A stretch of 7,469 nucleotides of DNA from a virus (taxonomy: Duplodnaviria; Heunggongvirae; Uroviricota; Caudoviricetes), in the IMG/VR virus record IMGVR_UViG_2534681934_000021, positions 1 through 7,469 of that record, one strand, 5' to 3'. The notes beneath the pieces were generated by a model. The model was not told the origin of the DNA and ran no database searches. It saw only the letters and a list, made by a program, of their open reading frames with translations. Positions 2,286 to 4,664 of the stretch are shown here, in pieces. A program made the position numbers and the translations under genes. Positions within the stretch are counted from its first letter, which is position 1, and each line of letters opens with the position of its first letter.

Positions 2286-2998
2286 TCACCCAAACGTCTC
2301 TTCAGGCCACTGACTAGCGATAACTTTCCCCACAACGGAACAACTCTCATTGCATGGGATCATTGGGTATTGTGGGTTTAGTGGCTGTAGAAACACCTGA
2401 CCGCTATCCCTGATCAGTTTCTTGAAGGTAAACTCATCACCACCAAGTCTGGCTATACAGAAATCGCCTGGCTCAACAGCCTGCTCAGGGTCAACCAGAA
2501 TTAACATCCCGTCAGGAAAGCTGGGCTTGGATCCTGTTGGTGCGGTCATGGAATTACCTTCAACCTCAAGCCAGAATGCAGAGCCACTGGCTTTTTTGGT
2601 TGTGCTTACCCATTTCTCCGCATCGCCTTTGGTAAAGGTTCTAAGCTCAGGCGAGAACATCCCGGCCTGAACATGAGAAAAAACAGGGTACTCATACTCA
2701 CTTCTAAGTGACGGCTGCATACTAACCGCTTCATACATCTCGTAGATTTCTCTGGCGATTGAAGGGCTAAATTCTTCAACGCTAACGTTGAGAATTTTTG
2801 CAAGCAATGCGGCGTTATAAGCATTTAATGCATTGATGCCATTAAATAAAGCACCAACGCCTGACTGCCCCATCCCCATCTTGTCTGCGACAGATTCCTG
2901 GGATAAGCCAAGTTCATTTTTCTTTTTTCATAAATAGCTTTAAGGCGACGTGCGTCCTCAAGCTGCTCTTGTGTTAATGGTTTCTTTTTTGCGCTCAT
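2286..2998 (-). pseudogene. cI: Lambda-type CI repressor, disrupted by a -1 frameshift in an A-run (A7 to A6) near codon 26
   Basis: From ATG at 2998 the translation [25 protein letters not shown] matches the lambda CI N-terminus, and the frame is then lost at the T-run 2923-2928. The 197-aa ORF 2286-2879 matches the remainder of CI, including the S24 peptidase-like C-terminal domain ([27 protein letters not shown]...). Start to stop is 713 nt, not a multiple of 3. Confidence 0.85.
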
Positions 2999-3004
2999 AC
3001 GTTA

Positions 3005-3074
3005 AATCTATCACCGCAAGGGATAAATATCTAACACCGCGCGTGTTGACTACTTTACCTCTGGCGGTGATAAT
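3005..3074. promoter_or_regulatory. Right operator region: OR3 (3009-3025), OR2 (3032-3048), OR1 (3056-3072), with divergent pRM (leftward) and pR (rightward)
   Basis: OR3 TATCACCGCAAGGGATA, OR2 TAACACCGCGCGTGTTG, OR1 TACCTCTGGCGGTGATA. pR has -35 TTGACT (3046-3051) and -10 GATAAT (3069-3074). pRM has -10 TAGATT (complement of 3005-3010) and -35 TAGATA (complement of 3028-3033). Confidence 0.85.
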
Positions 3075-3098
3075 GGTTGCATGTACTAAGGAGGTTGT

Positions 3099-3302
3099 AT
3101 GGAACAACGCATAACCCTGAAAGATTATGCAATGCGCTTTGGGCAAACCAAGACAGCTAAAGATCTCGGCGTATATCAAAGCGCGATCAACAAGGCCATT
3201 CATGCAGGCCGAAAGATTTTTTTAACTATAAACGCTGATGGAAGCGTTTATGCGGAAGAGGTAAAGCCCTTCCCGAGTAACAAAAAACAACAGCATAAAT
3301 AA
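3099..3302 (+). CDS. cro: Cro repressor, 67 aa; the C-terminal residues differ from lambda Cro (QQHK instead of TTA) through a 1-bp shorter A-run
   Basis: [63 protein letters not shown] matches lambda Cro. The Shine-Dalgarno AAGGAGGT is at 3088-3095. Confidence 0.9.
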
Positions 3303-3305
3303 CCC

Positions 3306-3337
3306 CGCTCTTACACATTCCAGCCCTGAAAAAGGGC
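3306..3337 (+). promoter_or_regulatory. nutR: nutR (boxA CGCTCTTAC 3306-3314; boxB GCCCTGAAAAAGGGC 3323-3337)
   Basis: Both elements match the lambda nutR boxA/boxB as recalled, directly downstream of cro. Confidence 0.75.
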
Positions 3338-3399
3338 ATCCAATTAAACCACACCTATGGTGTATGCATTTATTTGCATACATTCAATCAATTGTTATC

Positions 3400-3440
3400 T
3401 AAGGAAATACTTACATATGGTTCGTGCAAACAAACGCAAC
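3400..3440 (-). promoter_or_regulatory. pRE, the CII-activated promoter for repressor establishment
   Basis: The minus strand carries the CII binding motif TTGC-N6-TTGC (TTGCGTTTGTTTGC, complement of 3426-3439) overlapping the cII start, with a -10-like AAGTAT downstream, as in lambda. Confidence 0.5.
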
Positions 3441-3710
3441 GAGGCTCTACGAATCGAGAGTGCGTTGCTTAACAAAATCGCAATGCTTGGAACTGAGAAG
3501 ACAGCGGAAGCTGTGGGAGTTGATAAGTCGCAGATCAGCAGGTGGAAGAGAGACTGGATTCCAAAGTTCTCAATGCTGCTTGCTGTTCTTGAATGGGGGG
3601 TCGTTGACGACGACATGGCTCGATTGGCGCGACAAGTTGCTGCGATTCTCACCAATAAAAAACGCCCGGCGGCAACCGAGCGTTCTGAACAAATCCAGAT
3701 GGAGTTCTGA
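3417..3710 (+). CDS. cII: CII transcriptional activator, 97 aa, apparently intact
   Basis: MVRANKRNEALRIESALLNKIAMLGTEKTAEAVGVDKSQISRWKRDWIPKF...EQIQMEF matches lambda CII. The ATG is at 3417; the ORF track's upstream start at 3357 is an in-frame extension. Confidence 0.9.
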   Translation: MVRANKRNEALRIESALLNKIAMLGTEKTAEAVGVDKSQISRWKRDWIPKFSMLLAVLEWGVVDDDMARLARQVAAILTNKKRPAATERSEQIQMEF

Positions 3711-3733
3711 GGTCATTACTGGATCTATCAACA
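3656..3733 (-). ncRNA. oop: oop antisense RNA (~77 nt) overlapping the 3' end of cII
   Basis: The minus strand reads GTTGATAGATCCAGTAATGACCTCAGAACTCCATCTGGATTTGTTCAGAACGCTCGGTTGCCGCCGGGCGTTTTTTATT, i.e. the lambda oop sequence as recalled, with a GC-rich hairpin and U-tract terminator. Confidence 0.65.
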
Positions 3734-3742
3734 GGAGTCATT

Positions 3743-4664
3743 ATGACAAATACAGCAAAAATACTCAACTTCGGCAGAGGTAACTTTGCCGGACAGGAGC
3801 GTAATGTGGCAGATCTCGATGATGGTTACGCCAGACTATCAAATATGCTGCTTGAGGCTTATTCGGGCGCAGATCTGACCAAGCGACAGTTTAAAGTGCT
3901 GCTTGCCATTCTGCGTAAAACCTATGGGTGGAATAAACCAATGGACAGAATCACCGATTCTCAACTTAGCGAGATTACAAAGTTACCTGTCAAACGGTGC
4001 AATGAAGCCAAGTTAGAACTCGTCAGAATGAATATTATCAAGCAGCAAGGCGGCATGTTTGGACCAAATAAAAACATCTCAGAATGGTGTATCCCTCAAA
4101 ACGAGGGAAAATCCCCTAAAACGAGGGATAAAACATCCCTCAAATTGGGGGATTGCTATCCCTCAAATTGGGGGATTGCTATCCCTCAAAACAGGGGGAC
4201 ACAAAAGACACTATTACAAAAGAAAAAGAAAAGATTATTCGTCCGAGAATTCTGGCGAATCCTCTGACCAGCCAGAAAACGATCTTTCTGTGGTTAAACC
4301 GGATGCTGCAATTCAGAGCGGCAGCAAGTGGGGAACAGCAGAAGACCTGACCGCCGCAGAGTGGATGTTTGACATGGTGAAGACCATCGCGCCATCAGCC
4401 AGAAAACCGAATTTTGCTGGGTGGGCTAACGATATCCGCCTGATGCGTGAACGTGACGGACGTAACCACCGCGATATGTGTGTGCTTTTCCGCTGGGCCT
4501 GCCAGGACAACTTCTGGTCCGGTAACGTGCTGAGTCCGGCCAAACTCCGCGACAAGTGGACCCAGCTCGAAATCAACCGTAACAAGCAACAGGCAGGCGT
4601 GACAGCCAGCAAACCAAAACTCGACCTGACAAACACTGACTGGATTTACGGGGTGGATTTATGA
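3743..4664 (+). pseudogene. O: Replication initiator O, disrupted by a 23-bp tandem duplication inside the ori iterons and by a 1-bp shorter A-run
   Basis: The N-terminal 174-aa ORF (3743-4267) matches lambda O up to the iterons. An intermediate frame (4153-4350) matches ...LKLGDCYPSKQGDTKDTITKEK. The C-terminal portion (KRKDYSSENSG... to GVDL) is in a third frame, ending at 4664. Confidence 0.85.
4092..4198 (+). repeat. ori-lambda iterons, five copies where lambda has four (iteron 3 tandemly duplicated), followed by an AT-rich region
   Basis: tccctcaaaacgaggga (4092-4108), tcccctaaaacgaggga (4112-4128), tccctcaaattggggga (4135-4151 and again at 4158-4174), tccctcaaaacaggggga (4181-4198). 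The duplicated 23-bp unit is 4135-4157 and 4158-4180. Confidence 0.8.

Follow-up and report, generated by a model that had tools for sequence, protein, structure and literature searches.

The stretch of DNA analysed here (hereafter the window; 7,469 nucleotides, IMG/VR virus record IMGVR_UViG_2534681934_000021) was matched by megablast to prophage Sp1 (CP-933H in EDL933) of Escherichia coli O157:H7, which lies at thrW beside proBA. Its immunity and replication block shares 97.2% nucleotide identity with phage lambda over 2.4 kb, and the genes cI, cro, cII and O are homologous to and syntenic with those of lambda, with the ori iterons located inside O. Three homopolymers of cI, cro and O are each one base short in the window, and the first-pass annotation had left open whether these contractions are a sequencing artefact or the product of slippage decay. 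We addressed this question using phage lambda (NC_001416) and the Sanger-sequenced prophage Sp1 of O157:H7 Sakai as references. The features concerned are listed below, with run lengths also given for L040 (GCA_002464985.1, NJJE01000059.1) and L041 (Logan SRR15415547), two contigs of the same lineage as the window. Protein lengths are in amino acids (aa) and ORF stands for open reading frame.

2286-2998, minus strand: cI repressor gene, 713 bp as recorded, 714 bp (237 aa) when corrected.
2923-2928, minus strand: T6 run (A6 in the sense of cI); 7 bases in lambda, Sakai, L040 and L041.
Between cI and cro: OR operator region.
3099-3302, plus strand: cro, a 67-aa ORF as recorded, 66 aa when corrected.
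3217-3223, plus strand: T7 run inside cro, unchanged; it serves as an internal control and is contracted in 0 of five drafts.
3282-3287, plus strand: A6 run near the 3' end of cro; A7 in lambda, Sakai, L040 and L041.
3417-3710, plus strand: cII, 97 aa, intact and identical to Sakai ECs_0276.
3743-4664, plus strand: remnant of the replication gene O, a pseudogene in Sakai and in the PGAP annotation.
4135-4180, plus strand: a 23-bp ori iteron unit repeated exactly in tandem (4135-4157 = 4158-4180), so that there are five iterons.
4223-4227, plus strand: A5 run of O, located downstream of the iterons; lambda, Sakai and L040 have A6 here.

Pfam searches on the intact products of L040 recognized HTH_3 together with Peptidase_S24, Cro, Phage_CII and Phage_rep_O. 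Alignment of the window to lambda and to Sakai Sp1 agreed with the first-pass annotation in placing the cI, cro and O runs one base short at these coordinates and in finding the cro-internal T7 run unchanged, and translation confirmed that the end of Cro changes from NKKTTA to NKKQQHK. Furthermore, a base-by-base alignment of window positions 1811-6838 to Sakai revealed 0 substitutions. When the three missing bases were put back, the window became identical to Sakai over 5,031 bp, and the three run contractions are the sole differences within those 5,031 bp. A/T runs of at least 6 bases amount to 12 runs covering 76 of these 5,031 bases, so that three randomly placed indels would all fall within them with a probability of about 3e-6. 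Therefore, the restriction of the contractions to A/T homopolymers is not due to chance. A fourth contraction was sought in the segment 1404-1810, which has no counterpart in Sakai, by comparison with five other loci, and none was found in the window. A contraction from T7 to T6 at window position 1394 was observed in another locus (L030) and is not present in the window.

Searching for exact copies of the variant Cro led to the draft contig AIFO01000011.1 (GCA_000249455.2; 84,417 bp). Over the 7,302 window bases covered, the identity between the two is 100%, and the window lies at the end of the contig that terminates in an insertion sequence. Exact-protein searches of this kind also returned four sister drafts. 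Its lineage can be recognized by private markers, namely three single-nucleotide polymorphisms (SNPs) in the int region, an NYN-domain gene with a replaced 3' end (291-aa ORF) and an upstream phoE::IS629 insertion. The exact 291-aa NYN product was found in only two other contigs of a 153-billion-gene index, L040 and L041. Both carry private markers of the lineage, L040 also the int SNPs and the phoE::IS629 junction. Across 9,944 aligned positions, L040 matches the source contig perfectly, save for one additional base at each of the three sites. L041 matches it over 4,209 positions, the additional bases at the cI and cro sites excepted, and ends short of the O site. Both contigs encode a 237-aa CI and a 66-aa Cro, and L040 also encodes the 202-aa O' of Sakai. 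The closest available genomes thus differ from the window in these run lengths alone. A slipped allele should be reproducible in independent data from its lineage, and here the independent assemblies carry full-length runs at every site that they cover. The explanation that we favor, with a probability of roughly 93%, is that the three contractions are homopolymer undercalls that became fixed in one draft consensus, that of AIFO01000011.1.

A batch effect in the series of drafts to which AIFO belongs points in the same direction. Five drafts with neighbouring accessions (AIFE, AIFG, AIFH, AIFK and AIFO) were aligned to 23 kb of Sakai. Together they contain 18 one-base contractions and 0 expansions in runs of at least 6 bases (two-sided sign test, p = 8e-6). 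AIFK shows one extra single-base deletion outside runs, and substitutions are few outside the diverged iteron array of AIFG and the invertible tail-fibre segment. Contraction depends steeply on run length: 12 of 31 A/T 7-mers (39%) and 5 of 79 A/T 6-mers were contracted, compared to 0 of 169 A/T 5-mers and 0 of 436 A/T 4-mers (7 vs 6, p = 9e-5; at least 6 vs 5, p = 6e-8). The cI run is contracted in AIFO, AIFH, AIFG and AIFE and full in AIFK (4/5), the cro run is contracted in AIFO, AIFG and AIFK (3/5), and the O run in AIFO and AIFK (2/4), while a T7 run of int is contracted in all drafts but AIFO. In a four-gamete test, 5 of the 6 site pairs failed, indicating that the pattern across the drafts is not tree-like and that real mutations would therefore need many recurrences among five strains. 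The distribution of the alleles is thus incompatible with descent, among the drafts because of these failures and among finished genomes because the contracted alleles are scattered singletons.

The same sites are contracted in DNA of known sequence. The Logan assembly SRR100312 (L014) contains authentic lambda that matches the reference at 99.9% and departs from it by 2 substitutions in 8.2 kb and by 5 deletions, with no other indels. Each deletion falls in a run of at least 6 bases, and the contractions in cro (A7 to A6) and O (A6 to A5) are among them. Likewise, a lambda contig in the JGI metagenome 3300045124 (L012) carries 55 deletions, nearly all in homopolymer runs, which affect the cI T7 run and the cro A7 run and remove 2 bases from the O run. 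As these contractions occurred in lambda DNA, whose sequence is known, the three runs are technical hot spots. Regarding the mechanism and platform, we infer that a chemistry that reads a homopolymer as one signal would underestimate long runs, that such underestimates would recur at the same context-dependent hot spots, and that the assembler would then fix the shorter run length in the consensus. Consistent with such behaviour, 454 Titanium sequencing is reported to reach error rates above 50% at particular positions, with errors that recur from run to run and with deletions concentrated in homopolymers (PMC3116506). More generally, the contractions share with the consensus errors of 454 pyrosequencing, Ion Torrent, nanopore and unpolished PacBio assemblies their one-base indels confined to runs of at least 6 bases, steep dependence on run length, deletion bias, reproducible hot spots, occurrence as a batch effect within one project and false frameshifts in otherwise intact genes. 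They differ from such errors in that the flanking core genes, which offer few sites, are free of them here.

Finished genomes rarely carry the contracted alleles. We used 71-bp queries centred on each site to search 5,426 complete RefSeq genomes of E. coli. The contracted cI allele was found in 1 of 468 complete records compared to 4 of 5 drafts (Fisher p = 1e-8), the cro allele in 2 of 476 compared to 3 of 5 (p = 5e-6), and the O allele in 5 of 1309 compared to 2 of 4 (p = 1e-4). The remaining matching records all have one more base at the site, and no complete genome among the matching RefSeq records combines two of the three contractions. Furthermore, several carriers among the complete or near-complete assemblies are visibly error-rich. 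In AR-0428 (L028), crl, frsA, gpt and pepD beside the prophage are altered or split; in RLKF03 (L029), which also yields the 174-aa O' of the window, proA, proB, frsA and pepD are split; and CP089270 contains dozens of indels in the region.

Counts of exact proteins in public contigs gave a similar picture. The Cro variant ending in QQHK occurs in 37 contigs compared to at least 1000 for the wild type, the 197-aa fragment of cI in 26 compared to at least 1000 for the intact protein, and the 174-aa O' in 1 compared to 488 for the 202-aa O'. The listed accessions of the Cro variant and cI fragments belong mainly to this draft series (EHU and EHV numbers), and the contigs with variant proteins that we examined are mostly from the series or from visibly error-rich assemblies, with at least one exception, L015, where the locus is otherwise intact and Cro also ends in QQHK. 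The public 67-aa Cro variant and the 57-aa and 197-aa cI fragments probably include many artefacts. Two other peculiarities of the public records emerged in the course of these searches. In a 30-kb contig (GCA_020423245.1, JAIOUH010000578.1; L009-L011), cro-cII units, some of them with an A6 cro, are repeated dozens of times in tandem and inverted orientation, which suggests either a concatemer or a faulty assembly of a lambda-derived construct. In addition, lambda Cro, CI and O have been deposited under Venenivibrio, Streptococcus pneumoniae, Staphylococcus aureus, Bradyrhizobium, Bacillus thuringiensis and 'Campylobacter phage CJLB-4', most likely as a result of contamination with lambda control DNA.

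Several observations weigh against the attribution of the contractions to undercalling. In the core genes that flank the prophage (~8 kb per draft), 0 of 19 runs of at least 6 bases are contracted compared to 17 of 91 in the prophage (p = 0.04), the core ORFs of the drafts are intact, and selection against real slippage would give the same contrast between core and prophage. This contrast is weakened by the fact that the 19 observations derive from only 5 distinct sites and that several 7-mers of the prophage are likewise contracted in no draft; at equal run length it is not significant (7-mers, p = 0.14; 6-mers, p = 0.58). The A5 run of O occurs in a few finished genomes, two of them O157:H7, so occasional real slippage at this dead site is possible in general. 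L040 and L041 may also be very close relatives of the window's strain rather than that strain itself. One protein of the draft set is named from 'Escherichia coli DEC3A', and the series is probably the DEC collection, sequenced at least partly by 454.

The presence of the A5 run in finished genomes bears directly on a mixed explanation, in which the cI and cro contractions are artefacts and the O contraction is real recurrent slippage in a dead gene. O has been free of selection since the 23-bp duplication, and five complete RefSeq genomes have A5, among them O157:H7 Z1816 and ATCC 43888, where cI and cro are intact, as does the draft JJOJ01000404. However, L040 belongs to the same lineage as the window and has A6, as do the close relatives of Z1816 from the same study (the listed relatives match over 2,454 bp, Z1816 over 2,453 bp). 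The O site is contracted in authentic lambda reads too, and JJOJ01000404 also carries a G6 to G7 expansion, suggesting homopolymer noise. We consider this mixed explanation very unlikely.

Somewhat less likely still is that the A/T runs of cI, cro and O are hypermutable slippage sites, that cultures are mixed and that the draft consensus holds real alleles, whether in the minority or the majority. If this were true, repressor expression of a resident prophage with lambda immunity would be stochastically switchable. The contractions recall the contingency loci of, for example, Neisseria, Haemophilus and Campylobacter, where a one-base change in a homopolymer such as poly-G or poly-C switches the reading frame. 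Such phase-variable tracts, however, tend to be longer, and their variation is reproduced by accurate data, whereas the variation seen here vanishes in independent assemblies.

The slippage decay that had been offered as the counterpart to artefact would make all three contractions genuine replication slippage, private to this isolate, in an unselected prophage. A defective prophage would indeed tolerate frameshifts, homopolymers are preferred sites of real slippage and, as noted, the flanking core genes of the drafts lack contractions. Yet three private indels would be required within 1.3 kb of a sequence with 0 substitutions in 9.9 kb relative to L040, the same "mutations" recur in a non-nested pattern in four other drafts of the series but in only 0.2-0.4% of finished genomes, each of the 18 events is a contraction, and the same sites are miscalled in authentic lambda DNA. 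Moreover, measured against E. coli mutation-accumulation studies, contraction of 39% of the A/T 7-mers in each strain would seem to exceed known slippage rates by orders of magnitude over the age of the O157:H7 clone. Of the two possibilities initially left open, artefact is thus strongly supported, while slippage decay is not, in view of the full runs of the relatives, the draft batch, the finished genomes and the lambda reads, and we regard it as highly improbable.

Homopolymer tracts can also be heteroplasmic in culture, so a consensus could in principle have caught real subpopulations with shorter runs. Nothing direct supports this scenario: three independent minority alleles would each have to reach a majority in one culture, and likewise in the sister drafts, and A/T runs of 6-7 bases are far shorter than known contingency tracts, which makes it barely credible. 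A mutator strain was rejected, as it would require five mutator drafts, substitutions and broken core genes, and neither of the latter two was seen.

Undercalling in the draft consensus has direct consequences for the annotation of the window. As recorded, cI is frameshifted after codon 25 and divided between an N-terminal fragment of 57 aa and an ORF of 197 aa, and cro encodes 67 aa ending in NKKQQHK. The corrected genes encode a CI identical to Sakai ECs_0274, with 4 of its 237 residues differing from lambda CI, and a 66-aa Cro ending in NKKTTA. The Sanger-finished genome of Sakai has intact coding sequences for both, 714 bp for cI and 201 bp for cro. Most likely, cI (237 aa) and cro (66 aa) are also intact in the real strain. 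The cI and cro frameshifts of this record are consequently not usable as evidence of prophage decay or of loss of lambda immunity.

The status of O is another matter. The first-pass annotation held that the distinction between artefact and decay matters for every pseudogene call in the window, which is true for cI and cro but does not extend to O, already a pseudogene in Sakai as a result of the 23-bp duplication. Because this duplication breaks the frame and the loss of one base does not rescue it, the status of O is independent of the homopolymer question. However long its A run, O is a genuine pseudogene, and its true frameshift is the duplication; the run length changes the O' product from 202 aa in Sakai to 174 aa in the window. 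We considered the contraction as a compensation for the insertion and ruled it out, since +23-1 = +22 is still out of frame. The duplication is present in Sakai, L040 and the other five-iteron complete O157:H7 genomes examined (e.g. 155, Z1816 and ATCC 43888) and absent from lambda and from the O157 loci L020, L026 and L027. Both O and P are annotated as pseudogenes in Sakai, and the replication module of the window has no genuine inactivating lesions other than the iteron duplication of 23 bp in O and a truncated P.

The number of iterons in O varies among these elements. Lambda and some O157:H7 genomes have four and an intact O of 299 aa. Five are present in the window, in Sakai and in most of the other O157:H7 loci examined, and the frame is broken. 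Six iterons were found in L007 and in the draft AIFG, where the additional 39 bp are in frame and O is 312 aa long.

The value of these results is practical rather than biological, as they describe an ordinary artefact in a well-known prophage. The test is reusable: a sister assembly of the same lineage is compared at the suspect sites, and the nesting of the alleles is then checked across the sequencing batch.

The remainder of the window is occupied by the following features.

1-975, minus strand: integrase gene, P4/e14-type.
1283-2158, minus strand: NYN-domain gene.
4661-4972: remnant of P.
After the P remnant: tail-fibre and tail-fibre-assembly (tfa) genes.
From 6839 on: left end of IS629/IS1203.

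The window and Sakai Sp1 share the gene order int, cI, cro, cII, O', P', tail fibre, tfa as well as the 23-bp iteron duplication. They differ in that the lineage of the window keeps ~410 bp of the NYN-domain gene that are missing in Sakai, has 3 SNPs in the int region and carries an IS629 at 6839 that truncates the tail-fibre end. After correction, Cro is identical to lambda Cro, and CI shares 233 of 237 residues with lambda CI. In contrast, the window has five iterons instead of four, which breaks the frame of O, its P is truncated, and the NYN-domain gene replaces rexAB. With O and P pseudogenes and no lytic genes, the prophage is defective. In the OR2 / PRM-PR region, two C-for-T differences relative to lambda at 3040 and 3053 are real, as Sakai has both.

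The NYN-domain gene has junctions near 1389-1393 and 1806-1811, and its native 3' end is replaced in the window. In strains 155 and Z1816, an IS629 lies exactly where the lineage of the window keeps the ~410-bp NYN segment, which suggests an IS629 insertion followed by a deletion at this place. Three complete O157 genomes have a 1-bp deletion outside homopolymers at window position 1701.

At the other end of the window, the left end of IS629/IS1203 (6839-7469) truncates the tail-fibre end of the prophage and closes the contig. Positions 6851-6853 at the IS end read GTT in the window compared to AAA in the Z1816 and AIFK copies. A second IS629, upstream in the source contig, interrupts phoE (L033, 10332-12700). 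Finally, the segment containing the tail-fibre C-terminus and tfa (~5300-6838) is inverted in ATCC 43888, AIFH and AIFK compared to the window and Sakai, with a breakpoint at ~5300-5323 (TTCAAAACCTTGGTTTGG), consistent with a Pin-type invertible segment beside pinE.

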